Source: Deltaproteobacteria bacterium (GTDB lineage Bacteria > UBA10199 > DSSB01 > JACPFA01). From it: a DNA stretch of 64,000 nucleotides. The DNA lies in the NCBI GenBank assembly GCA_016183235.1, contig JACPFA010000021.1, positions 33,596 to 97,595 on the forward strand. Reading direction: 5' to 3'. Position numbers and translations under genes: made by a program. The notes beneath the pieces are model-generated. The model ran no database searches and was not told the origin of the DNA. It saw only the letters and a program-made list of their open reading frames with translations. Below are positions 8,479 through 51,156 of this stretch, piece after piece (position 1 is the stretch's first letter; every line of letters starts with the position of its first letter).

Positions 8479-8496
8479 TTTTAAAATCCTCTAATT

Positions 8497-10125
8497 TCAT
8501 AATCTTTTTCTTTGCCATCGAGCCAATAGCAACACGACCAAACCGCTTAGCAAAAATTGGATGAATATGGGGCTGGAGGCTTGCGAGGTTAGGTTACAAC
8601 CCTTGGAGCCAGTTTCTTGGGTTGTCGTTGGGTTGAAGTCCTTCTTTTCAGTATTGTTGATCGTGCCTGTGGGCGACGGCTTAGGTGCGGGTTGGGTACT
8701 GGCTGGAGGTTGAGTACTGGCTACAGGTTGAGGCGTTTCATCACAAACACTCGGATGATCGCTGTCTGAATCTTTTTGGTCTGGGTTGGCAACCATGGGG
8801 CAATTATCAAGGTCATTTTTGACACCATCACCATCGATGTCACTATCACAGGCATCGCCTTCAGCGTCGCCATCTAGATTTTTTTGATCGGTATTAGGAG
8901 TGATGAGGCAGTTGTCGGCACCATTGGGTACATCATCACTATCCATGTCACCATCGCAAGCATCTCCGCCATCATTCTGCCCATCGGTGTTTTTTTGGTC
9001 TGGGTTGGCAACCATGGGGCAATTGTCTTTTTCATCAAGAACTTTATCGTTGTCGTCATCGACGTCACAGATATCGCCATAAATATCATCGTCAGTATTT
9101 TTTTGATCAGGGTTGGCATCATTCGGGCAATTATCACCCGGTTCCAAAACACCGTCGCCATCTTTATCATATTGAATTTCATAAACTCCATTGCCAGTGC
9201 CGGCGTAGAGTTTATTGCCAAAAACAGCAAAGGACAAAACATTCTGGGCATTCGCCACCATCATTTTATCGAGACCAGCTTGTTTCCATTGGCTACCATC
9301 AAAACTAAAAACGCCTTGCCCATCGGTTCCAGCATAAAGAGTTTTGTTAAATACAATGAAGGCATTGATTTTTTTATTGATCAGGGCTTGCTCGGCAAGA
9401 GTCCATTGGTCATTCACCCCCCTGTAATGGAAAACTCTACCATTTTCAGTGCCAGCACGGAGTAAGTTAATAAAAAAGGTTAAAGCCGAGACTTTCAGGT
9501 CTGAAAGCCCATTAGATTTTGCAACCCAGCCTTTATTGATATCAAATAAAAACACCCCCTCGTTGGTTGCAATATAAAATTTGGTGCTCGAAGCAGCCAT
9601 CGCTCGAACACTTTTGTCGTTAAGACCTTTATTAAAAGCTTCCATCTGATTCTTATCGGCATTTAATTTAAACACTCCATCTAGGGGGGTACTGGCAAAG
9701 AGCGTGTCTTTATTTTCAAAGGGATAAATGACCAGATGGTCGACTGTTTTGGTGGAATCTAAACCAGGGATAGGATTAGACCATGTGCCTTCTTTAATGG
9801 AATAAGATTTTACCCCACCATCAAAGATGCCGGCATAAAGCATTGCGTCAAGGACCATAAGACTTTGTATATTTTTGCTAGCAAGTAGGTCTGGTTTTAA
9901 AGGGGTCCAATTATTACCATCATATTTGTATACACCGTCTTCTTTGGTGCCCGCATAGAGGGGGGTCAAAGCACGGTAGTCGGTTAAAGCTTGAACCGTT
10001 TTTCCTTCAAGCCCCGTAAGGCCCCAATGGTTAATTTCAGCTTGAGTGGAATGTGGCAAAAAAAATTGAAAAAAGATAACGATGGCTAAAGACAATAAAT
10101 TAATTTTTCGAAACATACCCCTCAC
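8497..10125 (-). CDS. Secreted 7-bladed beta-propeller-like protein with thrombospondin type-3 repeats and a C-terminal GCNL-TM-basic sorting tag (paralog 1)
   Basis: Signal peptide. Seven (L/F)YAGT..G(V)(F/Y) blade motifs. At least four DNCPxxxNPDQxDxD TSP3 repeats (about 8745-9135). Pro/Thr linker. Tail is SKGCNL + hydrophobic helix + RWQRKRL. Confidence 0.75.
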   Translation of the reverse strand: MRGMFRKINLLSLAIVIFFQFFLPHSTQAEINHWGLTGLEGKTVQALTDYRALTPLYAGTKEDGVYKYDGNNWTPLKPDLLASKNIQSLMVLDAMLYAGIFDGGVKSYSIKEGTWSNPIPGLDSTKTVDHLVIYPFENKDTLFASTPLDGVFKLNADKNQMEAFNKGLNDKSVRAMAASSTKFYIATNEGVFLFDINKGWVAKSNGLSDLKVSALTFFINLLRAGTENGRVFHYRGVNDQWTLAEQALINKKINAFIVFNKTLYAGTDGQGVFSFDGSQWKQAGLDKMMVANAQNVLSFAVFGNKLYAGTGNGVYEIQYDKDGDGVLEPGDNCPNDANPDQKNTDDDIYGDICDVDDDNDKVLDEKDNCPMVANPDQKNTDGQNDGGDACDGDMDSDDVPNGADNCLITPNTDQKNLDGDAEGDACDSDIDGDGVKNDLDNCPMVANPDQKDSDSDHPSVCDETPQPVASTQPPASTQPAPKPSPTGTINNTEKKDFNPTTTQETGSKGCNLTSQASSPIFIQFLLSGLVVLLLARWQRKRL

Positions 10126-10152
10126 CCCCTAATTAAATAACTAATTAAATAA

Positions 10153-11427
10153 CTAGTTCTTTTTTATTCTCTGTGGGCGTAGCCTTAGGGCTAAACCCAT
10201 AAAAAAGAATAGAGTGAAAAACCAAATAAACCCCACAGATGATTGAGCTGAGGCGTTTAAACTACATCCACTACCCCCGCCCGTAGGTGGAGTGGTGGCT
10301 TTGACTATTGTAAAATCAGGGTCACAAACATTGCCAATCCCATCGGCATCATCGTCTTTTTGATCGACGTTAGCAGCTTTAGGGCAATTGTCGCTTGCAT
10401 CGACCACACCATCACCATCGGTGTCAGCTGCGGGTGGCGAAGGAGGGGTAGAAGCAGGTGGCAGTTCAGGTTCAGTTGATGGAGGTGGTGAAGGTGGCGT
10501 AGCATCTCCTGGACTTGTTTGAAAATGAATCTCATACACCTGATTCTCAATGAGTGCATAGAGACTTGATCTATCGGCACTCAATTTCGTGGCAGGTTTG
10601 GATAGAGGCTTAAAAGATTCCCACTTACTTTTGTTGAGACTATAGATATTTTTATCAGGTGTAGCGGCGAGTAACGTGTCATTGTATTCTATCAGATCGG
10701 TTATGGATAGAGAGCCCAAACCGTCGGAAGCACTCTTAAAAAGGGCATCGGCATCCTTTTTGTAAAAAATACCCTTACTTCGATAACTGACAAAAAGATG
10801 ACCGTCGAATGCAAGCAGGTCTGTTACCCAATCCTCGGGGAGTCCTACATTGAGTGCTTTTTCAAAACTATTGTTGGAGATGAAAAACAAACCTTCATTG
10901 GTTCCTACGTATGAGCTGCTACCAAAGCGGTAAAATGCAGTGACTCGGGTTTGTTCCGCACTGCTGAGGATGCCCCAAGCTATACCCGCGCGGGAAATAA
11001 CACGACCTTCACTTGTTCCAAACATCAGGGTGTCACCTATACTGGTGAGCATGGTTATGGACTCAGCTGGAACGACACGAGGGGGTAATTCGACAGGTTT
11101 CCAATTTTTGTTCGTAAAGGAATAAAACCAAAGTTGGTAACCTCCGGCAGCAAAAAGTCCTTTATCGCTTGCGGCCAGATATTTAATGGGAGAACCTTCC
11201 GGGCCAAATTTTTCCCATCCACTACCATTATGATAAAAAACCCCTTCCTTAGTCCCTACGTAAAGGCCAGCTCTTGTGGTTGGATCGCCAATAAGATCAT
11301 ATAGTTGCAAACCATCTGGAAGGCCTTTAAGCTCGGTCCATTCGTTAACCCCTCCTTTGCTTGGAGTAGAAAATAACAAGATTAATACGACTACACAAAA
11401 TAGATTGGATAATTTGGACACCTTCAT
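10153..11427 (-). CDS. Secreted beta-propeller-like protein, one TSP3 repeat, GCSL-TM-basic tag (paralog 2)
   Basis: Signal peptide and seven blade-like motifs. Pro-rich linker, then DTDGDGVVDASDNCPKAANVDQKDDDADG. Tail is GGGSGCSL + helix + RLRPQRIKKN. Confidence 0.75.
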   Translation of the reverse strand: MKVSKLSNLFCVVVLILLFSTPSKGGVNEWTELKGLPDGLQLYDLIGDPTTRAGLYVGTKEGVFYHNGSGWEKFGPEGSPIKYLAASDKGLFAAGGYQLWFYSFTNKNWKPVELPPRVVPAESITMLTSIGDTLMFGTSEGRVISRAGIAWGILSSAEQTRVTAFYRFGSSSYVGTNEGLFFISNNSFEKALNVGLPEDWVTDLLAFDGHLFVSYRSKGIFYKKDADALFKSASDGLGSLSITDLIEYNDTLLAATPDKNIYSLNKSKWESFKPLSKPATKLSADRSSLYALIENQVYEIHFQTSPGDATPPSPPPSTEPELPPASTPPSPPAADTDGDGVVDASDNCPKAANVDQKDDDADGIGNVCDPDFTIVKATTPPTGGGSGCSLNASAQSSVGFIWFFTLFFFMGLALRLRPQRIKKN

Positions 11428-11527
11428 CCCATGCCTCCTAAGAAATTAAAGATTCCCAGTTCAATTAAGATTGTACGGGAAAGGGTAGGGCTTTGTAAAA
11501 TGTTTTTTTGTAAGTCAGGTTCCATTT

Positions 11528-11565
11528 ATGAAAAATATTATGAAAAATATGATATGAAAAATATG
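11528..11565. repeat. Short tandem repeat 3x ATGAAAAATAT(T/G) leading into a family-G hairpin remnant
   Basis: Read directly: ATGAAAAATATT ATGAAAAATATG AT ATGAAAAATATG, followed by ACGAAGGAACAATAAATTAAATAATTA, which recurs at 15698. Confidence 0.6.
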
Positions 11566-22206: not shown

Positions 22207-23640
22207 ATGCCACGTAAACTCTTGCCACTCGTCAGCGTCTTTTATTTATTTTTGTTGGTTTCTCTATGCTCAGCACCCGCTTTCAGTGAACCTACCTTAG
22301 AACAACGCGTTGGAGATCTCGAAGCTTATATGAACAATGTCGATCGTACCGCCAAGGCAGCCGATGGTTCTTATATCGGAAAGCTTCCCGGGGCTGGCCC
22401 TGGCCATAATGCATGGCTATTGATTTCTACGGCGTTGGTTTTATTTATGACCTTGCCGGGATTGGCCTTATTTTATGGTGGTTTAGTGCGGGCCAAAAAC
22501 GTGTTGTCGGTTATGGCACAATGTTTGGGGATCGCTGGGCTGGTTACTATATTATGGTGGGCAGTCGGTTACAGTTTGGTTTTTGCAAAAGGCGGGCCCT
22601 TTTTTGGTAGTTTAGATTTTGCTTTTTTCACGGGGGTAGATGGCAACCCTAATACGGATTATGCCTACTGGACTTCACACAATGTCTTTTCGATGTTTCA
22701 ACTCATGTTTGCCATCATCACACCGGCCTTGATCATTGGTGCCATTGCCGAGCGTATGAAATATTCTGCGATACTTTTATTTGTAGCGTTGTGGATGTTT
22801 GCGGTTTATTTCCCGCTGGCTCATATGGTGTGGGGCATTAATGGCTACATGAACGGAGTGTGGAATGCCTCAGCGACCATCAAGGCGATTGATTTTGCAG
22901 GTGGGACCGTTGTGCACATGTCATCGGGTTGGTCGGCTTTGGTTTTGTGTTTGATTTTAGGCAAACGCCTTGGCTTTGGCCGCGATGCCATGCCACCGCA
23001 TAGCATGGTGCTTTGTATGGTGGGCACGGGCATGCTGTGGGTGGGTTGGTATGGGTTTAATGCCGGCAGCGCCTTGGCGGCCGATGGTTTGGCGGCGGTG
23101 GCTTTTACGAATACAACTTTGGCAGCAGCGGTGGCTAGCTTTGTGTGGGCCATGGCCGAGTATCTTTTGAAAAAGAAACCCAGTATTTTAGGGTTTTGTT
23201 CGGGTGCGGTGGCAGGCTTGGTGGTTATTACGCCTGCTTGCGGATTTGTGAGCACGAATGCCGCTATCATCATTGGTATTTTAGCAGGGCTCGTTCCCTT
23301 TTTGGCTTGCTATAAGCTAAAAAGTTGGTTGGGTTATGACGACGCCCTCGATACCTTTGGGGTGCACGCCGTAGGTGGAACGCTAGGTGCCTTTGTTACC
23401 GGTGTCTTTGCTAATGGCAACGTTAACGCGAACCTGCTTACAAATTTAGGGGATATTGTGGGTAAAACCCTATGGATCGAACAATTAAAAGCCATGGCTA
23501 TAACGGTTGTTTTGTCGGTGGTGGCGACAGCGGTTATTGCCTACATTGTGCGGGCTCTGATTGGCTTAAGGCCTGCCGACGAAGTGGAACGCCAAGGTTT
23601 GGATTTGTCTGAACATGGTGAAGAAGGCTACGTATTTTAA
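22207..23640 (+). CDS. amt: Ammonium transporter
   Basis: 477 aa with a signal peptide. DFAGGTVVHMSSGWSAL and GFNAGSA are Amt/MEP signatures. Confidence 0.9.
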   Translation: MPRKLLPLVSVFYLFLLVSLCSAPAFSEPTLEQRVGDLEAYMNNVDRTAKAADGSYIGKLPGAGPGHNAWLLISTALVLFMTLPGLALFYGGLVRAKNVLSVMAQCLGIAGLVTILWWAVGYSLVFAKGGPFFGSLDFAFFTGVDGNPNTDYAYWTSHNVFSMFQLMFAIITPALIIGAIAERMKYSAILLFVALWMFAVYFPLAHMVWGINGYMNGVWNASATIKAIDFAGGTVVHMSSGWSALVLCLILGKRLGFGRDAMPPHSMVLCMVGTGMLWVGWYGFNAGSALAADGLAAVAFTNTTLAAAVASFVWAMAEYLLKKKPSILGFCSGAVAGLVVITPACGFVSTNAAIIIGILAGLVPFLACYKLKSWLGYDDALDTFGVHAVGGTLGAFVTGVFANGNVNANLLTNLGDIVGKTLWIEQLKAMAITVVLSVVATAVIAYIVRALIGLRPADEVERQGLDLSEHGEEGYVF

Positions 23641-31538: not shown

Positions 31539-33521
31539 ATGCCAGACTCTCCCACTTTTATTGAATCGTTAGCTGCGGATGTACTTAAAGTCCCGCCACC
31601 TAAGGCCTTTGTTGAGCAGGCCAACCTAAAATCAAAGCGAGAATTTGAAACCCTCTATGTTCGTTCTTTAATGGAACCGCAGGCCTTTTGGTTAGAACAG
31701 GCCAAGCGATTAAACTGGAAAAAATTTCCTAGTCAAAGCCTTCGTTATGATTGGGATGTGGCTAAGGGCAAGCTTTCGCAGCAGTGGTTTGAAGATGGCA
31801 CCTTGAATGTAGCCTCTAATTGTTTAGATCGTCATCTGCCGGTGCGGGCAAATAAAATTGCCATCTTGTGGCAGGGGGAACGTGACGAAGAGGTGCGCAA
31901 AATCACCTACGGTGAATTAACTCAAGCCGTCTGCCAATTGGCGAATGTTTTAACTGCACAAGGTATACAAAAGGGCGATCGAGTTTGTATTTACCTCCCT
32001 ATGATTCCAGAAGCTGCGATCGCCATGCTCGCTTGCGCGCGGATTGGCGCCATTCATTCCGTGGTCTTTGGGGGATTTTCGGCGCAAGCGCTGCAACATC
32101 GCATTCAAGATGCTCAATGCAAATTGTTGATCACGGCCGATGTAGGCTATCGGGGTGGCAAAGAAATTCCCCTTAAAAAAATTGCAGATGAAGCCTTGCG
32201 AGGCTGTCCTTCGATCGAAAAGGTGATCGTGGTAAAAAGAGGCATAGGCGAATGTAATTTAAATAGTACGCGTGAGTTGTGGTGGCACGAACTGATAGAA
32301 AAAAGTTCAACGAGTCACCAAGCGCTGCCCTTTGAAGCCGAACAACCCTTATTTATTCTTTACACCTCCGGTTCTACGGGCAAGCCTAAAGGCGTGTTGC
32401 ACACCAGTGCCGGTTATTTGCTGTTTGCCAACTTAACTCACGATTATATTTTTGATCACCATGAAAATGATTTGTTCTGGTGCACGGCCGATGTGGGCTG
32501 GGTGACCGGCCATTCTTATTTAGTTTATGGGCCGCTTTCGAATGGGGCGACGGTGCTGATGTTTGAAGGCATTCCCACTTATCCCGATGCGGGTCGGTTT
32601 TGGCAGGTGATTCAAAAACATAAGGTGACGGTTTTTTATACCGCGCCCACAGCCATTCGCGCCTTGATGCGTGAAGGCGAGCATTGGCCTGCGCAATACG
32701 ATTTAAGTTCATTACGTTTGTTAGGTAGCGTGGGGGAACCGATTAATCCCCAGGCCTGGGTTTGGTATCATGAACATATTGGTAAAAAGCGTTGCCCCAT
32801 TGTCGACACCTGGTGGCAAACCGAAACGGGTGGGATTTTGATCAGCCCGCTTCCCGGCGTGCATACTTTAAAAGCGGGCAGTGCAGGGCACCCGTTCTTT
32901 GGCATTGAACCGGTGATTTTGCGCGATGATGGTTTGGAGTGTGAAGCGGGCGAGGGAGGTAAGTTGTGTATTAAAAAACCGTGGCCCGGTATGGCGCGCA
33001 CCATGTGGGGCGATCATGAACGGTTTATTCAAACTTATTTTACGACTTATAAAAATTTATATTTTACCGGTGATGGTTGTAAAATTGATGAAGATGGCGA
33101 TTATTGGTTGATGGGACGCATTGATGATGTGGTGAACATTTCTGGCCATCGCTTGGGAACCGCTGAGGTGGAAAGTGCTCTCGTGGGGCATGATTTGGTG
33201 GCCGAGGCTGCGGTGGTACCCATGCCGCATCCTATCAAAGGGCAATCCATTTATGCCTTTGTAACACCGGTCGAAGGCCAAACCCCAACCGATGAATTGC
33301 GCAAAAAATTGATCCAACATATTCGTAACAGCATTGGCCCCATTGCCGTGCCGGAGGTCATTCAGTTTGCCGATAGCTTACCCAAAACCCGTAGCGGTAA
33401 AATCATGCGCCGCATTTTACGAAAAATTGTAGAAGGGGATTTAGAACATTTGGGGGATGTGTCAACTTTGGCCGATCCTACGGTAGTGGAAAAATTAATA
33501 AAGGCCAAAGGCCCTTCTTAA
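31539..33521 (+). CDS. acs: Acetyl-CoA synthetase
   Basis: [14 protein letters not shown]-binding motif and WWQTETGG, with a full-length match to the Acs layout. Start set to MPDSPTF (660 aa). The upstream 117 codons of the track ORF are repeat and antisense sequence. Confidence 0.9.
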
Positions 33522-34190
33522 TTTATAATAGTGCAGCGCAGCCTTCCATGCTGTTGCTTCGTAACTTAGTTTAGGAGTTCCTGGGGGAATGACTTGTTCA
33601 AACTTAGGATGTAGGTAAGGAGAATCAGACAAGAAATATTTTACGTCAGTGAAAAGATGAAAATCGAATAAGCTCAATGTTGCATCCCTGACATTAGCTC
33701 CAACAAAATCATCAGGCGAATTGATTAACCAAGCCCCTGGGCCCATGTAACGATTTTCAAGAATACTTAAGTAATTCAGCAAAGGATGAACAATATGAAG
33801 TTTGTTGGTAAGATCGGTAATGTAAGTATGATCACAGACCGAAGTTTTTAGGTAAGCCCGTGGGATGGGTGCATATTCGTCATTTTTATTCTTGCCAATG
33901 GCATAGGTCCACATCAGAGAAAATTGGGGTTGATAAGAGGATAAACCCTCCTTTAGCCAGTAGTATGCAGTAGAGGCTGCGGCAGCGCTTGTGGAATAAG
34001 GAAAGGCTCTAATCCAACTGTCGGTTGCATAAGGTGGTGAAGAATTATAAAGTTGAAGTAATTGATTAGCGATTTGAGCGGGGTTGAAACTTTCGCAAGG
34101 AGAAGCTTGTGGTGAAGGACCTGTTTCGTGAGGAGGAGTGATTGTGCTAGTTATACTTACCGAAGCTGAGGCCGGAACGGGAGGACTCAT
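33495..34190 (-). CDS. Hypothetical protein
   Basis: 231-aa ORF with a Ser/Thr/Pro-rich N-terminus. No recognisable motif. Its 3' end overlaps the acs 3' end by 27 nt (convergent). Confidence 0.4.
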
Positions 34191-34334
34191 TTTTAAACCC
34201 CTTCTACCCCCAGCTTTTCTACTCCTCTGATTATCGTCATTTATTGAAGAGAGTTGTGATTTTTTTTAATTGAGTTGTTGCGGCTAAAATCTTACAATAA
34301 AGCGTCAATCAAGGGTAGTTGGGTTTAAAATTCC

Positions 34335-34862: not shown

Positions 34863-34878
34863 TGGCATAATTTCTGCA
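34863..34878 (+). promoter_or_regulatory. Possible sigma-54 promoter upstream of the giant ORF
   Basis: TGGCAT-AATTT-CTGCA has GG and GC at the canonical -24/-12 spacing. It lies 43 nt upstream of ATG 34921, which is preceded by GGGGGAAT. Confidence 0.35.
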
Positions 34879-34920
34879 CGCTCAAGTTGGACTGGGTAGA
34901 ATGGTACTAATTGGGGGAAT

Positions 34921-37900
34921 ATGGTTTTACCTGTAGGGTTAGCATTACTAGGGGCAGTTCTTTTTGAAGAAGATTGGGTCGACGAGGCATCTCTTCATCA
35001 ACCTTTCGCTCATGGATCTTCTGATTTTCCTAAGAACATCATCGATGAATTTAAAAAGGTGACCGATGGATTTTCTCATTTGGCATTTCAGGTGCCTTGG
35101 TTTGCGAGAGAATTTTTTTCTGTGGCCTCGGTTACGGCGGATTATCTTCTTACGGATGCTTTGTTAGAAGAGGCACTCAATTTGGTTGAAGAGCACCATC
35201 TTGATGCAGAAATGGGGATGGTGGTTCGAGAAAGGGTTTTTGAATTATCGGAACAAAATAAAAACAGCAATGAAGAAGTTAAACTTAAGTCAGAACTGTT
35301 ATTGGGGCAACTGTATTTGTGGATTGAGGTCAATCAACTAAAATTTGCCGAGCCCGATAGGAAGAGGCCTGCTGGCCATGAATATACTCATTCAAAATTA
35401 GTCGATGGCGTGCGAGGTAAAATTCTTTTGTCCCTGCGGTTGAAAGATTCAGCGTTATATCACGAAGCCCAGCGTAAATTTTTCATCTTAAAAGAATTGG
35501 CCGATCATTTAGAACGCAAGGTTGAGCTGGCCCATGCCCACCGGATGATGGCGGCTTTGCCCGTGAAGCATGGTTTAGAACCTGTGCAAGGAGATTATCA
35601 TTGCGAAGAAAATTGTGATCGAGCCAAAACACCTTACGCTTATTTAAATGGTGAGGCCTACAGCCAAGTTTATCAGCGGATGACCGTTGGGAGAAAGTCC
35701 GATTTTGACAAGGGTTTGCGTGTTTTGTTTGGCAAACATGGGCAGGGTGTTTTGGATGGTGAGTATGCAGGGGGTTGGGAGGATTTTTTAGCGAAGCTGC
35801 AAGGGGAGGATTACGAGGGGGTGCTGCGTTTTATTGAAGAAGAAACAGCCATTCTCCAACAGGCCGACTTCAAGACCTTCTTTGAATTTGTGGAGAAGGC
35901 TAGTTTAGATCCTGCTACCGAGAGAGTTTTGGATAATCGCAAGGCCATCGATGAATTGAGCCGTGAAATGAAAGCAGGGCAAGGATTATGGGTCTTGCTT
36001 AAGACCTTAGAGAAGGATTCACAGCCGAGCCGTGCCGAAAGAGATGCGATTTTAAGTGCCGTGGTTGAGGAATTAAGGGCCGAGAAGACCAAGTTATGGG
36101 AGGAGGCAGGGAAACTTGGTTTAAGCCCTCGGGAAGAGGAATATTTAAGAAGGTTGGGGGAAACCCAAGACATCCAACATGCAACCGGGATGATGGAAGA
36201 GAGCGCAGAGCGATATAATAACGAAGATCGGGTGGGATCCTATGCTGATGAGGAGGGCAATTGTAGTGATCCAGCAGGTTGTTTGGAACCATCGAGCAAA
36301 TATTTTCATGAAGTAGGTGATGGATATGCGGTTCAATTAAAAGAACAATGGGAACGGTTTGAAGAAAAATATAAAGGGGTTAGTGATTATGTGGATGTGG
36401 CCGATGAGATTCGTGGTTTAATCCTTACGCAGCAGAAGATTCAAATTTTGCATTTGAAGATGCGGGTGACCCGAGAACTAGAGGTAGTGGGTTTAAGCCA
36501 AGTAGAGCGTGAGCAGGTGGATGAGCTTTTTGAGAAGCTTAATAAACAAGGGACTGATCTTACGCAAGAAAAGGTTGAGACTTTACTCAAGCCTATCCGC
36601 GAACAAATTGAACGCAAGGCCTTAGCCAACGTTATTGAATCCGAACTTCGCGTGACTCAGGCCATGGCTCAAAAATTATTTGCGTCACACCGCGACATTG
36701 CAGGTTTTCCAGAGCTAGTGATCAATTATGAAAGGGCCTTAAGGTTATATCAAGGAGATGAGTACGAAAAGGCCCGGGCTTTATTTTTGGAATGTTACCA
36801 CAGCCCATTGCGGGCCACACTAGGAGAAGAGTTTGCCGAGATTGTTGCCAAGGAAAGGGAAGAAAACGAAGTTAGTTTTTGGATAAGCCTTGCTATCGTG
36901 ATTGCAGCGACCATGATTGCGACGGTGTTGACGGATGGGGCTGCCACGGTTTGGACATTGAGTGTTACCAGCCGATTTTTACTCAATGGGACCCTTTGGT
37001 ACTTTAGCCATGAGGCCTTGGGGATGGGATACGCTGTGCTGCAAGGCCGCGAGATTCCTACCAAGGGCTTGATGGAGCATGGGCGTGATTTAGTGCTTAC
37101 GTTAGGGATGTTTGGTGCGATTGCCCGAGGGATGAAATCTTTTCTTGATTCTGTCAAAGGCCAGTTAGCCGCGCGGTTTTTGCAAAGAACCGGGCGTGAG
37201 CTTACTGAGTTAGAATTAGAGGCCGAATTTAAGCAATGGTTAGCAGGTTCAACGCTGTGGAATAAAATTAAGTTTCATGTCCGCATGTTTGGCGCGGAGT
37301 TCAAATATTTTACGGGATGGAATTTGTTAGAAGGGAATATTCGCTTAGCTTTGAAAGAAGAGTTTGATCCCTTGGGGGTGTTGATTGAGAATTTAAGCCC
37401 CGAGAGTTTAGGGCAGCAGGCTTTGTTTTTATTGGGTTTGAAGGTAGGCAATTTTGCAGCCAAGCCTGTAACAAAATTCGCCAATGCCCAAATCGAAAAA
37501 GGTATTTTGGGAGAAGAGACCTATCGGGCCTTAAAGGTTAATGAGGCCGAGGCCGAACAACTTCAAAAAGAATTGATGCAATATTTAGCGGAAGTCGAAT
37601 TGGGTAAAGCCTCTTTTGAACCCCAAGACCGGGTTAAGTTTTTTGTTCGATATTTAGAGTTATTGACGGAACGTGCCAGGATCATCGGTTCTGTGCGCAA
37701 TGAGTATCGCCATGAAGGGGCATTAGAAGATGTGGCAGTGGAGAGGGAGCAGACCGAACAATTAGCGGCGGCTGGCCAAGTGAGCATGCAACGAACGGGT
37801 GAATTTACCTTTGTGGTGGATGAAAATACGATCAAGCAATTGAGGGTGATGGGTGTTTCATTGACTGAATTAAAACCAGGGGTTTATTCCCTCGAAGTCG

Positions 37901-39783
37901 ATGGAAAAAAGATTTTTCTGGTGGAAAAAGACAAAATTGAGGTTCGTGATCAAACGCCCAAGCCGTCCGATCTCGAACCTGCTTCCACACCATTGTACTC
38001 AGCGGCATTGCTAGGGGGATGGGAAATTGTTCAACAGATAGCCCATGACGTATTATTTTATGGTTCTCGAGTTTTACTGGTGGGGTGCTTGGTTTTGATG
38101 GTGCACCATCGGCATCAAGCCAAACTAGCGTTCGAACGTGGGGTCAGACGCATTCGACATTGGATGGATTATCGTCATTTTGATGCAAGGGCCTATTTTG
38201 ACCAATTACCAGACCTGACCCCTTCTCAGCGAGAGCTGCTTGCCGAACTATACCCGAAGGGTTTGGACATCTCACACTTGCGGCAGGGCAGGATAGGTGA
38301 CTGTCATTTGGTATCTACTTTATATGGTTTTAAACAAACACCACTGGCCCCCTATCTTATCGCGAAGATGATTCGTAAAGTAGACAAGGGTTGGGAAGTT
38401 ACTTTTCCCGATAGTTTTAACCCGGTCTTTGTATCAGTCAAAGAAATTCGTCGAGGTAAACAAAGGGGACGCGATCGTTTCACGGGGCAATACGAAACAT
38501 TTCGATTTTCTTCCGGGGCCCTGGGTGATCGCATTTTAGAACGAGCTTTGGGTAAAGTCACCCGACAGAAGCGAGGAGGCCAGGAAGGTGAGACAGCGGC
38601 TCTTATGCAAGGGGGGTTTGGTTACGAGGCTTTTGATATTTTATTGGGCCGATTTCACCACCACGAAATGGTCGATAATTACCAGCGAGGGCCTTTTAGC
38701 GAAATGTTGGATTTTGGTCGCACCAAGGTAGAAAACGTTCTCTTAGATTTTGCCAAAGACCCAGGGAATCATATTTTATGGGCGGCTACACCGGTTGATT
38801 ATAAAACACCATGGTATTATTGGGTGCCTAGTGGTCGCCGGGGATTTGAAAAAGTTTATTTTATGGATAAGGCCCGCTATTTTGTGCAGCAACATGCCTA
38901 TGTGGTGACCCAAGTAGATGCTAAGGATCGTACGGTAACGGTGATCAATCCCCATGATACGGGTAAAGAACATATCATGAGCTTTGATGATTTTTACAAG
39001 ATTTTCTCTCGGGTAGAGATTGCAAGGTACGATCGGGCGGCTATGCGCACTTACTTGGGCGATGTTTATTTGTTGCAAGGCGGTCAACGGGTTGAAGGGA
39101 TTGAAGGGCGGCTTCAGCACCGAGTGACTTATCATTATAGCTTGGATGCAACTCAAGGCTTGCGGGTTAGTTTAGACGGGTATGAGGTACAAATATATCG
39201 TAAGGGTCGTAAGCTCATTGTGTTGGGCAGTGGATTGCCGGTTTCTTTAAGAGAGGGTATTTCCCCGGGAGGTGAATATGTTTTGGGTCGTTTGGTTTCA
39301 GATGAACTTCCTGCTTCTGTTTCGGGGCGTCACCTGAAGATTGCCTTCCATCGCGATGGTAGTACGGTTGCTTTGGAAGATTTAGCTTCTCGCAGCGGCA
39401 CGCGAGTCTTGAAGGAGACGCGGATTCCTGAGCCTGCCGAGAAGGGATTGTTAGCCTTTACAGGCACGTTGGGTCACCCGCTCAACGGAGATCATTTCCA
39501 CGCCTATGAGCCCCTAGATATAGGGTATCGTATTCAACTAGGGCGGGAATTTTTAAATGTCATTTTTATGGGTGAACGTTTGGAATTGGTTGATCGTCAA
39601 AACAGAAGGGTGGCCAGATTGTCCCCTGGGCAAGAAATTATTGTTGGAAGGGAACACTTTTCGAGTTCAGAAGGGAGAACGGTTTCTGCAAATCATGTCC
39701 ATATTATTTTTAGTAGGGAAGGTCATTTGCTCATCAAAGACTTAAACTCCAGTAATGGGACGATGGTTTTTTACAATCAATAG
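34921..39783 (+). CDS. Giant (1620 aa) membrane-associated protein: helical N-region, TM segments, calpain-like (peptidase C2) cysteine protease core, two C-terminal FHA domains
   Basis: Calpain triad context: RQGRIGDCHLVS (Cys codon at 38302), QQHAYVV (His codon at 38893), VINPHD (Asn codon at 38947). FHA1 is YVLGR..SGRHLKI..DLASRSGT (about 39260-39430). FHA2 is IIVGR..SANHVHI..DLNSSNGT (about 39600-39780). Hydrophobic helices lie at about 36871-37080 and 38010-38110. Confidence 0.85.
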   Translation: MVLPVGLALLGAVLFEEDWVDEASLHQPFAHGSSDFPKNIIDEFKKVTDGFSHLAFQVPWFAREFFSVASVTADYLLTDALLEEALNLVEEHHLDAEMGMVVRERVFELSEQNKNSNEEVKLKSELLLGQLYLWIEVNQLKFAEPDRKRPAGHEYTHSKLVDGVRGKILLSLRLKDSALYHEAQRKFFILKELADHLERKVELAHAHRMMAALPVKHGLEPVQGDYHCEENCDRAKTPYAYLNGEAYSQVYQRMTVGRKSDFDKGLRVLFGKHGQGVLDGEYAGGWEDFLAKLQGEDYEGVLRFIEEETAILQQADFKTFFEFVEKASLDPATERVLDNRKAIDELSREMKAGQGLWVLLKTLEKDSQPSRAERDAILSAVVEELRAEKTKLWEEAGKLGLSPREEEYLRRLGETQDIQHATGMMEESAERYNNEDRVGSYADEEGNCSDPAGCLEPSSKYFHEVGDGYAVQLKEQWERFEEKYKGVSDYVDVADEIRGLILTQQKIQILHLKMRVTRELEVVGLSQVEREQVDELFEKLNKQGTDLTQEKVETLLKPIREQIERKALANVIESELRVTQAMAQKLFASHRDIAGFPELVINYERALRLYQGDEYEKARALFLECYHSPLRATLGEEFAEIVAKEREENEVSFWISLAIVIAATMIATVLTDGAATVWTLSVTSRFLLNGTLWYFSHEALGMGYAVLQGREIPTKGLMEHGRDLVLTLGMFGAIARGMKSFLDSVKGQLAARFLQRTGRELTELELEAEFKQWLAGSTLWNKIKFHVRMFGAEFKYFTGWNLLEGNIRLALKEEFDPLGVLIENLSPESLGQQALFLLGLKVGNFAAKPVTKFANAQIEKGILGEETYRALKVNEAEAEQLQKELMQYLAEVELGKASFEPQDRVKFFVRYLELLTERARIIGSVRNEYRHEGALEDVAVEREQTEQLAAAGQVSMQRTGEFTFVVDENTIKQLRVMGVSLTELKPGVYSLEVDGKKIFLVEKDKIEVRDQTPKPSDLEPASTPLYSAALLGGWEIVQQIAHDVLFYGSRVLLVGCLVLMVHHRHQAKLAFERGVRRIRHWMDYRHFDARAYFDQLPDLTPSQRELLAELYPKGLDISHLRQGRIGDCHLVSTLYGFKQTPLAPYLIAKMIRKVDKGWEVTFPDSFNPVFVSVKEIRRGKQRGRDRFTGQYETFRFSSGALGDRILERALGKVTRQKRGGQEGETAALMQGGFGYEAFDILLGRFHHHEMVDNYQRGPFSEMLDFGRTKVENVLLDFAKDPGNHILWAATPVDYKTPWYYWVPSGRRGFEKVYFMDKARYFVQQHAYVVTQVDAKDRTVTVINPHDTGKEHIMSFDDFYKIFSRVEIARYDRAAMRTYLGDVYLLQGGQRVEGIEGRLQHRVTYHYSLDATQGLRVSLDGYEVQIYRKGRKLIVLGSGLPVSLREGISPGGEYVLGRLVSDELPASVSGRHLKIAFHRDGSTVALEDLASRSGTRVLKETRIPEPAEKGLLAFTGTLGHPLNGDHFHAYEPLDIGYRIQLGREFLNVIFMGERLELVDRQNRRVARLSPGQEIIVGREHFSSSEGRTVSANHVHIIFSREGHLLIKDLNSSNGTMVFYNQ

Positions 39784-39901
39784 CGATCTAACTTGAAGTG
39801 ATGGATTTGGGGTTTGACAAATAAGTGTAAACGTGGGAATGATCCCCGGTCAATTAAACTATTACGGCCGGTTTCGGCTTTTTATTTTGGAGATAGATTT
39901 C

Positions 39902-40222
39902 ATGAATCAAAAATTGTATGTGGGTAATTTACCCTTTCAAGTCACTGAAGACGAATTAAGAAACACCTTTGCCGCTACTGGCGAGGTGGCTAATGTTCAA
40001 ATTATTACTGATAAGATCTCAGGTCGGTCAAGGGGATTTGCCTTTGTCGAAATGGGAAGTGCCGAAGCCGCGAATGAAGCCATTGGTAAGTTAGATGGAA
40101 CCAGCTTAGGTGGTCGTAATATTGTGGTCCGTGAAGCCCGCCCGATGAATAAAAATGGTGGTGGCGGTGGTGGTGGCAGACGTGATTTTTCAGGTCGCCC
40201 CCGCGGTCCCAGACGCTATTAA
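39902..40222 (+). CDS. RRM-type RNA-binding protein with Gly/Arg-rich tail
   Basis: Start at MNQKLYVGNLPF (RNP2) and RGFAFVEM (RNP1). GGGGGGGRRDFSGRPRGPRRY tail. RBS GGAGA upstream. Confidence 0.85.
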   Translation: MNQKLYVGNLPFQVTEDELRNTFAATGEVANVQIITDKISGRSRGFAFVEMGSAEAANEAIGKLDGTSLGGRNIVVREARPMNKNGGGGGGGRRDFSGRPRGPRRY

Positions 40223-40249
40223 TCGCTAATATTTAGTTTTGAAAACAGG

Positions 40250-40283
40250 GATTGGATGGCCTTCTGAGGCCATCCAATCTTTG
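40250..40283 (+). terminator. Rho-independent terminator after the RRM gene
   Basis: Perfect 12-bp stem GATTGGATGGCC/GGCCATCCAATC with a 6-nt loop, followed by TTT. Confidence 0.55.
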
Positions 40284-47649: not shown

Positions 47650-48771
47650 ATGAGTATGGCACAAGACAAGCTTGATCATAGGGTGGCAGAGCTTGAACGC
47701 TTGGTGGAAATTCTTTCTCGCGGCAAATATCTTTGGGAAAAAACCTTTGATGCCATTGTTGACCCGGTTTTGGTGGTGAGCGAACATTATAAGATCGACC
47801 GAGCTAATCTAGCCCTAGCCGCTAGTAGCGGGCAAGCGGTGCAGACCATCATTGGGAAAAAATGTTACGAGGTCTTTGCGCATCGCACGGGCCCATGCCC
47901 CCGGTGCCCCATGCAACGTCAGCAAGGTAAATCAAACCTCGATGCCTTTTCCGATGGCCGTGAATTTTTGGCGTTTAGCTATCCCTTGCCTCCGCACCCC
48001 ACGAGCCCTGAAAAACATTATGTGGTGCATTACCAAGATGTAACCCGGCTTAAAGAATTAGAAGAACAACTGATTCAGTCAGAAAAATTGGGGGCCATTG
48101 GCTTGTTGGCCGGCGGGGTGGCCCATGAAATCAATAATCCTTTGGGGGGTATTTTGGCCTTTGCCCAATTGGCTAAAAAAGAACTTGCTGCGGAAAGCCA
48201 GATTTATCAAGACCTAACCGAGATTGAACACAATGCCTTGGCTTGTAAACGTATCATCGAAGATTTACTTGCCTTTGCAAGGCCGGCTTCGAAGCTAGAA
48301 AAAAAGGCGGTTTCGCTTTCTAAAGTTATGGAAAAAGTTTTGAGCTTAGTGCGTACGCAGTGGAAAGATTCAAAGATTGAAATTAAAAATGAAATGCCCA
48401 CCCAGTTACCCAGTGTGTTGGGCAATGAAAATCGCTTAGAACAAGTATTTTTGAATTTGCTCACCAACGCCTGCCAAGCGGTGAATGGCCAGGGTTGGGT
48501 GAGAATCTTTGCCGAATCCCTAAAACACGAGGTGATGATTGGGTTTGAAGATAATGGTGCAGGGATTTCATCCGAACATTTGCCTAAAATTTTTGACCCT
48601 TATTTTTCTACTAAGGCACGGGGCCAAGGCACTGGCCTAGGGTTATCGATTACTTATCAAATTATTCAGGCGCATAGTGGCAAAATCGAAGTGCAAAGCA
48701 AACTTGCTGCGGGGACTTTATTTAAAATTTATTTGCCAAAGTCTATTCGTGCAGTAGGAGGTGGCCGGTGA
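47650..48771 (+). CDS. Soluble sensor histidine kinase (Cys-rich PAS-like input + HisKA + HATPase)
   Basis: 373 aa with no TM segment. H-box GVAHEINNPLGGI, N-box NLLTNACQA, G-boxes DNGAGI and GTGLGLSI. The input region has KCYEVFAHRTGPCPRCP. Confidence 0.85.
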   Translation: MSMAQDKLDHRVAELERLVEILSRGKYLWEKTFDAIVDPVLVVSEHYKIDRANLALAASSGQAVQTIIGKKCYEVFAHRTGPCPRCPMQRQQGKSNLDAFSDGREFLAFSYPLPPHPTSPEKHYVVHYQDVTRLKELEEQLIQSEKLGAIGLLAGGVAHEINNPLGGILAFAQLAKKELAAESQIYQDLTEIEHNALACKRIIEDLLAFARPASKLEKKAVSLSKVMEKVLSLVRTQWKDSKIEIKNEMPTQLPSVLGNENRLEQVFLNLLTNACQAVNGQGWVRIFAESLKHEVMIGFEDNGAGISSEHLPKIFDPYFSTKARGQGTGLGLSITYQIIQAHSGKIEVQSKLAAGTLFKIYLPKSIRAVGGGR

Positions 48772-49742
48772 ATTTCCCAGAAATTATTGGGCAATCGCAA
48801 CCCATGCAAGAAGTCTTTGCGCTCATGCGGAAGGTGATTGAATCCGATAGTACGGTTTTGATTTTGGGTGAGTCGGGCACGGGTAAAGAGATGGTTGCTC
48901 GGGCAATCCATGAGCGGGGGAGTCGCTGGGCCTTTCCACTGGTGACGGTGAATTGCGGGGCCATCCCAGAAGGGTTATTAGAATCAGAGTTGTTTGGGCA
49001 CGCTCGAGGTTCTTTTACCGGAGCCATTGAAAACCATCGTGGAAAATTTGAAGTAGCCAATCACGGCACCTTGTTTTTGGATGAGATTGGCGACATGAGC
49101 CCTAAACTACAAGTCAAGTTGCTGCGGGTTTTACAAGAAAGAAAAATTGAAAGTGTGGGGGCTAATAAATTAGTCGAAGTTGATGTGCGGGTGATTGCAG
49201 CCACCCATAAAGATTTAGAAAAGGTGGTGCAAACAGGGCATTTTCGTGAAGATTTGTATTATCGCTTGAATGTTATCCCCATACCCGTGCCGCCCTTGCG
49301 TGATCGCAAAGCCGACATACCCTTACTCTTAGAATATTTTTTAAAAAAATATGCCCAAGAAAATCAGTTGGCCGAACCCGTGCTCGGCCCTGAAGTCATG
49401 GCCTTACTTTATTCCTACACTTGGCCGGGCAATGTGCGGGAGTTGGAAAACTTTGCTGAACGGGTGGTGGTGCTTTATCCCGGGGCTGTGCTGAAGGCTC
49501 AAGATATTTTGCAAAAATTTTTAAAAGGGCCCACCAGCGTTATGACATCCGTGCAAATTTCAGATGAAGGGATATCGTTCAAAGAGGTGGTGAGTGATTT
49601 TGAAAATGAACTCATTGCCAAAGCTTTGGAAAGAACGGGGGGCAACAAAAACAAGGCCGCTCACTTGTTACATTTAAATCGCACCACGTTAGTGGAAAAA
49701 ATTAAAAGGCTCAATCGAGGTAACCATGACATCAAGCCCTAG
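48768..49742 (+). CDS. Sigma-54 enhancer-binding protein lacking any N-terminal regulatory domain (AAA+ + Fis-type HTH)
   Basis: 324 aa. Starts directly at IIGQSQPMQEV. Walker A GESGTGKE, sigma-54 contact loop GSFTGA, GTLFLDEI, C-terminal HTH GGNKNKAAHLLHLNRTTL. GTGA overlap with the kinase stop. Confidence 0.85.
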   Translation: MNFPEIIGQSQPMQEVFALMRKVIESDSTVLILGESGTGKEMVARAIHERGSRWAFPLVTVNCGAIPEGLLESELFGHARGSFTGAIENHRGKFEVANHGTLFLDEIGDMSPKLQVKLLRVLQERKIESVGANKLVEVDVRVIAATHKDLEKVVQTGHFREDLYYRLNVIPIPVPPLRDRKADIPLLLEYFLKKYAQENQLAEPVLGPEVMALLYSYTWPGNVRELENFAERVVVLYPGAVLKAQDILQKFLKGPTSVMTSVQISDEGISFKEVVSDFENELIAKALERTGGNKNKAAHLLHLNRTTLVEKIKRLNRGNHDIKP

Positions 49743-51156
49743 TACTAAAAAAACCACATCCTTGTTAATTGTCGACGATGAAGAATCGATTGTTAAAGTT
49801 TTTCAACGGGTGGCTAAAAACGAAAAGTTAAGCTGTGCGGCTTGTAAAAATGGCATTGAGGCCATGGATTATTTGTCGAAACACGAAGTGGAATGTGTGT
49901 TGCTCGATATTAATTTGCCCAAATATTCTGGGTTTGAAATTTTAGAATACGTCAAATCAACCCAACTCAATACCGAAGTTATTTTGATTACTGGTTCAGG
50001 CAGCGTGGAGAATGCCGTAAAGGCCTTGAAAGCAGGGGCCTATGATTATTTAACCAAACCTTTTGATTCGCTCGATAAAGTCACCTTGACCTTACGCAAT
50101 GCAATTACCAAATACCGTTTAGTGATGAAGGTTAAATCACTAGAAGAAAATACCGAAGACGTGGATAGTTTTGAAGGGATCATGGGTCGCTCTAAACCTA
50201 TGCAAGAGATTTATCGAATTATTAAGAATATCTCGATTGCCAACTCCAGCGTGTTGATTCAAGGCGAATCGGGTACCGGCAAAGAATTGGTGGCCAAGGC
50301 CATTCATCAAACCAGCAAGCGTAAAAATAATCCCTTTGTGGTAATCAATTGTGCAGCGATCCCCGAGGGTTTGTTAGAGTCAGAACTTTTTGGCCATGCC
50401 AAGGGTTCTTTCACCGGGGCCTATTATGACAAAAAAGGGCTTTTTGAAGAAGGTAACCACGGCACCGTATTTTTAGATGAAATTGGAGAAATCCCGCAAA
50501 GCATTCAGGTAAAATTGTTGCGGGTGTTGCAGAATGGCGAAATTAAACCCGTAGGCGGCAACGACAATAAACACGTGGATGTGCGGATTATTGCGGCGAC
50601 CAATAAAGAGTTGTTGGAAATGACCAAGGCGGGGACTTTTCGGGAAGACTTGTATTACCGCTTGAATGTTATTGGCATTAATATGCCCAGCCTCAAAGAG
50701 CGGGCCGAAGATATTCCCCTGCTATGCCAGCATTTTTTGAAAAAATATAATGAAAAGACGGGCAAAAATATTACCGGGTTTTCGATTGATAGTATGCAGG
50801 CTTTGCAAAGTTACCACTGGGTGGGGAATGTACGGGAGTTAGAAAATACGGTGGAACGCAGTGTGGTGCTAGCTACCGAAGACCAAATTAAAGCCAAAGA
50901 TCTGCCAGTGAAAATTTTGTCTTCTACTTTTTATATGTTGGATGACAAAGAAGAAGATCTCACCAAGTTTTCTTATCAAGATGCCAAAACGCGGGCCCTG
51001 CATATTTTCAATAAAACCTATATTAAAAATATTTTGCACCAAGCCCGGGGGAATATTTCAGTGGCGAGCGATCGGGCGGGGATGGACAGAAGTAATTTTA
51101 AAAAGATTGTGAAAAAATACGATATTGATGTGAACGAATTTAGGAAATCGAGCTAA
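49726..51156 (+). CDS. NtrC-family response regulator (REC + sigma-54 AAA+ + HTH)
   Basis: 476 aa. Canonical receiver (IVDDEE, VLLDINLP, ILITG, LTKPF), then GESGTGKE, GSFTGA and an HTH. 17-nt overlap with the previous gene. Confidence 0.9.
   Translation: MTSSPSTKKTTSLLIVDDEESIVKVFQRVAKNEKLSCAACKNGIEAMDYLSKHEVECVLLDINLPKYSGFEILEYVKSTQLNTEVILITGSGSVENAVKALKAGAYDYLTKPFDSLDKVTLTLRNAITKYRLVMKVKSLEENTEDVDSFEGIMGRSKPMQEIYRIIKNISIANSSVLIQGESGTGKELVAKAIHQTSKRKNNPFVVINCAAIPEGLLESELFGHAKGSFTGAYYDKKGLFEEGNHGTVFLDEIGEIPQSIQVKLLRVLQNGEIKPVGGNDNKHVDVRIIAATNKELLEMTKAGTFREDLYYRLNVIGINMPSLKERAEDIPLLCQHFLKKYNEKTGKNITGFSIDSMQALQSYHWVGNVRELENTVERSVVLATEDQIKAKDLPVKILSSTFYMLDDKEEDLTKFSYQDAKTRALHIFNKTYIKNILHQARGNISVASDRAGMDRSNFKKIVKKYDIDVNEFRKSS

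Follow-up and report, generated by a model that had tools for sequence, protein, structure and literature searches.

What kind of protein is built when a protease and two phosphothreonine-binding modules are joined behind a long helical and membrane-spanning region, and is such a combination an accident of one genome? The question is raised by a gene at positions 34921..39783 of a 64,000-nucleotide stretch (the window) of contig JACPFA010000021.1, from the Deltaproteobacteria bacterium assembly GCA_016183235.1. An identical sequence is deposited at NCBI, annotated as a hypothetical protein, from a metagenome-assembled genome (MAG) labelled "Deltaproteobacteria bacterium". An original prediction, made from the DNA letters alone, described a calpain-like cysteine protease followed by two forkhead-associated (FHA) domains, and supposed that the fusion implied recruitment or control by phosphorylation. 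In this report we performed a computational analysis of this gene and its relatives, which confirmed the calpain-type assignment and led us to a reading in which the protein is a membrane-anchored, cytoplasm-facing calpain-type protease, targeted or activated via phosphothreonine recognition by its two C-terminal FHA domains. We give this reading a probability of roughly 0.55.

An intact gene under purifying selection

34921..39783, + strand: complete open reading frame (ORF), ATG start, 1620 residues plus stop, zero internal stops
34913-34918, + strand: Shine-Dalgarno-like GGGGGA, read directly from the sequence

The first point to settle was whether an ORF of this length might be split by frameshifts in the underlying reads. 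Three groundwater metagenome contigs, assembled independently of one another, carry an intact orthologue of 1619 residues with 81% identity, and the order of the genes on either side of it is the same as here. In a codon-wise comparison of the two ORFs, the ratio of nonsynonymous to synonymous substitution rates (dN/dS) is 0.21 overall and 0.14-0.36 in each of seven segments, with values of 0.19 for the N-terminal helical part, 0.14 for the membrane region, 0.19 for the protease region, and 0.23 and 0.26 for the FHA regions. Because the ratio is low in every segment, a frameshift artefact is excluded and the whole ORF is a real protein-coding gene under purifying selection.

A divergent calpain-like protease core

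38188..39087, + strand: calpain-like (peptidase C2-type) cysteine protease core, residues ~1090-1389, on family, profile and fold evidence
38284-38286, + strand: codon of Gln1122, catalytic set
38302-38304, + strand: codon of Cys1128, catalytic set
38893-38895, + strand: codon of His1325, catalytic set
38947-38949, + strand: codon of Asn1343, catalytic set

The first important finding is that residues ~1090-1389 form a divergent calpain-like core. The triad had been placed at exactly the right positions, with C1128 in RQGRIGDCHLV, H1325 in QQHAYVV and N1343 in VINPHD. Taken singly, the sequence stays below the Pfam threshold for Peptidase_C2 (PF00648), its alignment to that family covers just 27 residues around the Cys, and a single-sequence search of the PDB with the whole protein returned no match. 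The evidence for the assignment comes from the family. Searched exhaustively with HMMER, residues 1062-1410 retrieved 335 representative homologues at E<=1e-3, of which 16 reach E<=1e-30. From these, 33 members were aligned, which are 25-36% identical to the query with the exception of one 86%-identical orthologue. G1126, C1128, H1325 and P1344 are invariant across these 33 members, and no fewer than 90% of them have Q1122 and N1343; as far as an alignment can tell, the conserved Gln, Cys, His and Asn are the papain-like protease set in calpain-type motifs. PF00648 is matched by all 33 (best E=1.1e-14), and homologues with 27.5, 27.3, 26.6, 28.4 and 35.6 bits lie above the Pfam cut-off.

Profile and fold comparisons point the same way. 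When the family profile was compared with the PDB, it matched 11 distinct calpain sequences at E values of 8e-6 to 3e-4, no unrelated chain scored below 1e-3, and one designed protein scored 1.1e-3. The Cys motif, the HAY/NPx motif and the C-terminal motif align in order, pairing QgniGdCY with QGELGDCW, HAYs with HAYS, and NPH with NPW (calpain-3 and calpain-9), so that the catalytic Cys, His and Asn fall on their calpain counterparts. The AlphaFold2 model of the protease domain, built from the family alignment, is confident, with a predicted local distance difference test score (pLDDT) of 89.1 and a predicted template-modelling score (pTM) of 0.87. A Foldseek search of the PDB with this model gave 19 top matches that are all calpain cores (calpain-1, -2, -3, -5, -8 and -9; E 3e-7 to 9e-5), over ~300 aligned columns, with probability 1.00, TM-scores of 0.31-0.48 and 13-18% identity. 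The next folds are other papain-like enzymes, which appear only from E>=0.01, about four logs behind the calpains. The two lobes of calpain move relative to each other, and the modest TM-scores could reflect this movement, divergence, or both. The calpain-type assignment is thus confirmed because conservation within the family, the profile's matches to calpains of solved structure and the confident fold comparison agree: the core belongs with family C2 by fold and motifs. What does not hold is a direct Pfam assignment of residues 1090-1360 to PF00648, since relatives pass the strict Pfam threshold and the sequence itself falls under it.

Does a core so divergent still cut? The low identity and a TM-score of ~0.45 to characterised calpains in structural alignments would suit a scaffold with no catalytic activity, or an enzyme other than a protease, such as a transglutaminase-like one, in which case the protein would be a phospho-dependent adaptor only. 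Against this, the retention of the Cys and His without exception, and of the Gln and Asn nearly so, in members at ~30% identity is the pattern expected of an active protease and not of a pseudoenzyme, and calpain cores are the only significant structural matches. We consider loss of proteolytic function very improbable.

Tandem FHA domains

39136..39420, + strand: FHA domain 1 (FHA1), residues ~1406-1500, PF00498 20.1 bits alone (cut-off 20.7); G1456-R1457, S1468, H1471, S1490, with S1492 replacing the usual Asn
39421..39525, + strand: inter-FHA linker, residues 1501-1535 (35 residues), with Thr1517 (FTGT), a Thr kept in the orthologue
39526..39780, + strand: FHA domain 2 (FHA2), residues ~1536-1620, PF00498 25.3 bits alone, which passes; full canonical set G1576-R1577, S1589, H1592, S1610, N1612

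The protein as a whole reaches the PF00498 gathering score of 20.7, with 36.5 bits (E=6.5e-9) over two stretches. As for the protease, a single sequence finds little in the PDB (the FHA region alone gave matches at E~0.7 only) and the family profile finds much. When the sequences that follow the protease were aligned for 14 family members, they proved to contain two repeats of the pattern G-R ... (V/I)-S-x-x-H ... D-L-x-S-x-N-G-T, each with an invariant Ser, His, Asp, Ser and Gly. The G-R pair is nearly invariant at both positions in FHA1, whereas the Gly of FHA2 never varies and its Arg is found in 12/14 members. Compared with the PDB, this profile matches FhaA (Rv0020c) of Mycobacterium tuberculosis best (E=6.6e-10), followed by GarA, OdhI, Rv1747, RNF8 and Rad53. 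FHA1, corresponding to profile positions 58-131, matches GarA, RNF8 and others, and FHA2, corresponding to positions 178-245, matches FhaA, OdhI and Rv1747. Because each half of the profile finds FHA domains of known structure, we judge both domains genuine, FHA1 being slightly atypical, with phosphothreonine-binding residues kept in both. Of the two well-formed domains in the original prediction, the tandem arrangement is confirmed and FHA2 is canonical, but FHA1 is marginal when scored alone and has lost its loop Asn.

The tandem arrangement also accommodates a different use of these domains. Rather than selecting substrates, they might act mainly in cis, on phosphothreonines of the protein itself (in the linker or the N-terminal region, for example), leading to self-association or to relieved autoinhibition. 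The parallel would be the M. tuberculosis transporter Rv1747, whose clustering is reportedly driven by its tandem FHA domains. The tandem FHA domains and the 35-residue linker with a conserved Thr are kept across the subfamily, and the FHA profile also matches the FHA domain of Rv1747, both of which suit action in cis, with Thr1517 as a phospho-acceptor being speculation. Conversely, homologues share little of the linker in either length or sequence, and no phospho-site is known. We regard a predominantly cis role as possible, though clearly less probable than recruitment or activation through phosphothreonine recognition, with which it is compatible.

The fusion as a family trait

The second important finding is that the fusion is not a one-off. 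FHA domains were sought, with the FHA region of this protein as a probe, in the query and the 150 best-listed of the 335 homologues (151 proteins). They lie C-terminal to the protease in 26/151 and N-terminal to it in 19/151, and the combination is confirmed by Pfam on 11 (P0003, P0004, P0005, P0006, P0008, P0009, P0010, P0015, P0016, P0081 and P0158), with P0005 having three FHA stretches. By similarity of the protease domain, the nearest neighbour is of the same type for 25/26 proteins with C-terminal and 15/19 with N-terminal FHA domains, and never of the other type. The FHA-calpain fusion is thus a recurrent trait of two subfamilies across several phyla, and the fact that the pairing is kept in two subfamilies with opposite domain order argues for functional coupling.

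The commonest form is a protease-FHA-FHA protein of ~600 residues with no strong transmembrane segment (P0003 has a weak N-terminal hydrophobic stretch), and these soluble members offer an easy experimental entry. In the giant forms, of 1500-2800 residues, a long N-terminal part and one strong transmembrane segment are added. The named sources of the relatives are Candidatus Gracilibacteria and "Patescibacteria group", to which a hand-made degenerate DNA pattern added Peregrinibacteria/Peribacteria, Gastranaerophilales (Melainabacteria), a Muribaculaceae MAG (Bacteroidota) and a Bdellovibrionales MAG. The family is concentrated in small-genome bacteria of the candidate phyla radiation, where a protein of 1500-2800 residues is a large investment; for that reason its function may bear on the envelope, on division or on host interaction.

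Several observations on individual relatives deserve mention. In a Patescibacteria MAG (L007), paralogous protease-FHA-FHA genes stand in tandem at 8001-9779 (592 residues) and 9842-11563 (573 residues), near FtsW/RodA, MurG-like and LspA genes. Two FHA-less giants have a calcineurin-like phosphoesterase (Metallophos) match upstream of the protease, which scores 25.3 bits and lies above the cut-off in P0088 (residues 1306-1465) and is weak in P0132 (residues 1614-1705), and which tentatively connects the family with phospho-signalling a second time. Finally, four giant homologues on metagenomic contigs, one of them from a Gracilibacteria MAG, are followed after 10-17 nucleotides by a small gene encoding 111-132 residues with no Pfam family:

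L004, 7717-8052: small gene downstream of a giant homologue
L005, 16414-16770: small gene downstream of a giant homologue
L008, 13696-14094: small gene downstream of a giant homologue
L022, 13623-13982: small gene downstream of a giant homologue

The four small proteins resemble one another (pairwise E 3e-5 to 4e-17), and could serve the protease as partners, regulators or inhibitors.

The N-terminal and membrane regions

34921..36858, + strand: N-terminal region, residues 1-646, Glu/Leu/Lys-rich and predicted helical (composition; 85% identity to the orthologue; dN/dS 0.19)
36871..36927, + strand: predicted transmembrane segment 1, residues 651-669 (VSFWISLAIVIAATMIATV), Kyte-Doolittle 19-residue mean 2.23 (orthologue 2.35)
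36928..38049, + strand: middle region, residues 670-1043, predicted mostly helical with a small beta unit at residues ~963-1002 (dN/dS 0.14-0.18)
38050..38106, + strand: predicted transmembrane segment 2, residues 1044-1062, followed by a strongly basic stretch (HHRHQAKLAFERGVRRIRH), Kyte-Doolittle mean 1.93 (orthologue 1.57)

The N-terminal two-thirds of the protein is as well conserved as it is isolated. Between the two orthologues, the N-terminal ~1060 residues are conserved as strongly as the protease domain, reaching 97% identity at residues 421-480 and 601-660. Nevertheless they gave zero significant matches in Pfam (also scanned piecewise), NCBIfam, PDB sequences and PADLOC, and no relative of the N-terminal 1061 residues was found among 185,579 species-representative genomes. 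The N-termini of the other giants are related to one another around a transmembrane "membrane module" and gave no phmmer match to that of this protein. Shared ancestry of the N-terminal parts was also considered at the profile-profile level, where the probability was 0.2%, and was rejected for lack of evidence. The N-terminal ~1060 residues, two-thirds of the protein, are lineage-specific. In residues 1-640, E accounts for 13%, L for 12.3% and K for 6.6%, in agreement with the Glu/Lys/Leu-rich character first noted, and an AlphaFold model of residues 1-1062 from the two-sequence alignment is helical nearly throughout, at low confidence (pTM 0.26). Two pairs of Cys, HCEENC (residues 227-232; 35599-35616) and NCSDPAGC (residues 447-454; 36259-36282), are kept in the orthologue and could be a metal site or disulfides.

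The hydrophobic helices expected at about residues 650-720 and 1030-1060 resolve into the two strong segments listed above, both conserved in the orthologue. The middle region between them, scanned in pieces, has no Pfam family match. In the 19 residues after segment 2 there are 6 K/R against 1 D/E, so that by the positive-inside rule the protease-FHA module would be cytoplasmic, which is also what FHA function would require. The ~600-residue homologues, which have the same protease-FHA-FHA module and no strong transmembrane segment, are consistent with a cytoplasmic module. With two transmembrane helices, residues 670-1043 would lie outside the cytoplasm and the N-terminal region inside. There is no classical signal peptide, as predicted, and residues 2-16 are hydrophobic without a basic n-region.

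The taxonomic range of the family and the size of its giant members raise the question of whether these proteins act in another cell, as exported or contact-delivered effectors whose calpain-like domain cuts host or prey proteins while the FHA domains bind that cell's phosphoproteins. The enrichment in episymbiotic and predatory lineages (Gracilibacteria, Peregrinibacteria/Peribacteria, other Patescibacteria and Bdellovibrionales) would fit, as would the giant size of the relatives (1500-2800 residues) and the small gene downstream of four giants, which can be read as encoding an immunity-like partner. However, this protein has no signal peptide or recognisable secretion domain, its internal transmembrane segments suggest an integral membrane protein, and no counterpart of the small 111-132-residue partner gene is found in the window. 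Furthermore, soluble 600-residue forms also occur in Melainabacteria and Bacteroidota, and a conserved C-terminal module behind variable N-termini is the reverse of what is seen in polymorphic toxins. An effector role is therefore unlikely in our view.

A proposed mechanism

Under the membrane-anchored protease reading, the helices at residues 651-669 and 1044-1062 would tether the protein so that both its helical N-terminal part and its protease-FHA-FHA module face the cytoplasm, with the ~370 residues that separate the two helices lying on the outer side. A threonine on a partner, on a substrate or on the protease itself would be phosphorylated by a Hanks-type kinase whose gene lies elsewhere, the FHA domains would bind the phosphothreonine, and the Cys1128/His1325/Asn1343 site, with Gln1122 as the oxyanion-hole residue, would make a limited and irreversible cut. 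In this scheme we infer phosphothreonine binding, proteolytic activity, the identity of kinase and substrate and a sensor or scaffold role for the N-terminal region or the loop, and with them control by phosphorylation.

Several points weigh against this reading. First, at the level of the domains, the Peptidase_C2 score stays below the gathering cut-off of 23.8, with 14.0 bits for the whole protein and 20.4 bits for the protease domain by itself, and FHA1, which reads SRSGT instead of the usual SxNGT, has no loop Asn and is marginally sub-threshold on its own at 20.1 bits. Second, the N-terminal two-thirds has no usable model (pLDDT 39), which leaves most of the protein unexplained, and the number of transmembrane helices is uncertain, since there is a third, weaker hydrophobic segment at residues 724-742, inside the middle region, in addition to the hydrophobic N-terminus at residues 2-16. 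Third, the 64-kb window contains no gene for a Ser/Thr kinase or a PP2C phosphatase, and no kinase or phosphatase adjoins eight homologues on the contigs that were inspected. Lastly, we know of no activity, phosphopeptide binding or substrate for any family member.

More broadly, the family as a whole might perform phosphorylation-directed limited proteolysis, in which FHA domains read phosphothreonine made by Hanks-type kinases and the fused protease cuts. Membrane-anchored giants, the present protein among them, would then be transmembrane sensor-proteases by virtue of a loop outside the cytoplasm and a large helical domain within it. This generalisation is tentative, and we think it less likely than its contrary. 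If true, a reversible phospho-signal would be turned into an irreversible cut, a prokaryotic counterpart of phosphodegron-type control that is DEK1-like by layout. In any case, a protease-FHA fusion in two independent arrangements and several phyla suggests a testable logic in which kinase signalling is fed into irreversible proteolysis.

Promoter candidate and gene neighbourhood

34863..34878, + strand: candidate sigma-54 (-24/-12) promoter TGGCATAATTTCTGCA, a consensus match 43 nucleotides upstream of the start codon
22139-22154, + strand: second match to the same pattern, just upstream of an ammonium transporter gene (22207..23640)
61245-61260, + strand: third match, within and antisense to an ORF of 1852 residues
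34335..34736, + strand: DUF4870 gene (E=3e-25)
33495..34190, - strand: ORF of 231 residues with no Pfam or PADLOC match
39833-40222, + strand: RRM-type RNA-binding gene (PF00076, E=1e-20) with a Gly/Arg-rich tail, directly downstream
40246-40283: hairpin with a 17-bp perfect stem, terminator-like on both strands, after the RRM gene
58306-63864, - strand: second giant ORF, 1852 residues, with a weak Acyltransferase match (E=1.9e-6, residues 1444-1497)
8497-10125 and 10153-11427, both - strand: adjacent genes with thrombospondin type 3 (calcium-binding) repeats, one with beta-propeller-like matches

Three stretches of the window match the pattern TGGCAYN5YTGCW, where 0.32 would be expected. At the candidate promoter the GG and GC are kept in the orthologous locus, where the intergenic region is 93% identical, and two sigma-54 activator genes lie at 48768-51156, by annotation of the syntenic locus. 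Expression of the protease gene from a sigma-54 promoter would be in keeping with these observations.

The two upstream neighbours are as first described, a DUF4870 gene and an unassignable 231-residue ORF, the latter on the minus strand. Other neighbours are a CusCBA-like efflux system and an acetyl-CoA-synthetase-like gene and, downstream, the RRM protein, RNase HII and DUF456. The GTG start of the RRM gene at 39833 is probably too far upstream, the orthologous gene being called at 106 residues. The hairpin overlaps the listed TTG start of RNase HII at 40252, and for this reason the true start is probably further downstream (the orthologue has 214 residues, against 231 here). In the orthologous locus L001, an extra gene of 185 residues with no Pfam family (8801-9358, - strand) lies between the 231-residue ORF and DUF4870, and it is absent from the corresponding stretch of the window (34191-34334). 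We claim no operon or functional link with the neighbours, because synteny is limited to the close orthologue and none is seen beside distant homologues. A role in a defence system was considered and set aside, this protein and three neighbours with an unknown or poorly assigned function having no PADLOC-DB match at E<=0.1, and the neighbourhood not being conserved.

Comparison with known systems

To what extent is this architecture new? With the calpain cores (MEROPS C2, PF00648; human calpain-1, -3, -5 and -9) the protein has in common the two-lobed papain-like core and collinear motifs (Q-G-x-x-G-D-C; H-A-Y; N-P-H/W), and it differs in lacking penta-EF-hand and C2-like/CBSW domains and in having NPH instead of NPW after the catalytic Asn. 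Like the bacterial calpain homologues (PMC4631099), which include Tpr of Porphyromonas gingivalis, and the cyanobacterial calpains (PMC9380684), it belongs to a group of bacterial proteins with patchy distribution and varied architectures, some of them membrane-associated. In those surveys the partner domains are PPC, haemolysin-type calcium-binding, deaminase and similar domains, with a few transmembrane forms, whereas the subfamily described here is found mostly in uncultivated lineages sequenced later. The bacterial homologues lack calcium-binding sites, and Tpr is the only one with any biochemistry (Rawlings 2015, PMC4631099). These almost uncharacterised homologues are not linked to Ser/Thr-phosphorylation signalling in the surveys.

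The FHA domains find their best solved matches in FhaA/Rv0020c, GarA and Rv1747 of M. tuberculosis and OdhI of Corynebacterium glutamicum, with which they share the Arg/Ser/His(/Asn) set, and Rv1747 also has tandem FHA domains. These proteins couple FHA domains to metabolic-enzyme inhibition, transport or cell-wall scaffolding, and we know of no report of a protease domain in any of them.

The original prediction had not recognised the fusion as a described architecture, and this stands as far as the literature was searched, although the fusion is not unique to this gene. FHA is unmentioned in the text of PMC4631099, PMC9380684, PMC3563603 (41 calpain architectures) and PMC10762896 (membrane-anchored calpains), and a full-text search of the literature, with subscription-only articles outside its reach, found no paper on Peptidase_C2 with FHA or on bacterial calpain-like with forkhead-associated. 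The combination is visible in database annotation, in the form of Pfam matches on P0158 and of names given by NCBI, for example "FHA domain-containing protein", and is thus undescribed rather than undetectable.

The closest analogy by layout is with the DEK1-type membrane calpains (MEM-Linker-CysPc; PMC10762896), which likewise consist of a membrane part, a linker and a cytoplasmic core. There is no sequence relationship outside the core, and the differences are clear: two (perhaps three) transmembrane helices here versus ~20 in DEK1, an FHA end versus a CBSW domain, and a bacterial versus a eukaryotic protein. The parts are known, and what is new is the joining of a calpain-type protease to phosphothreonine readers, together with the lineage-specific membrane and helical region of this gene.

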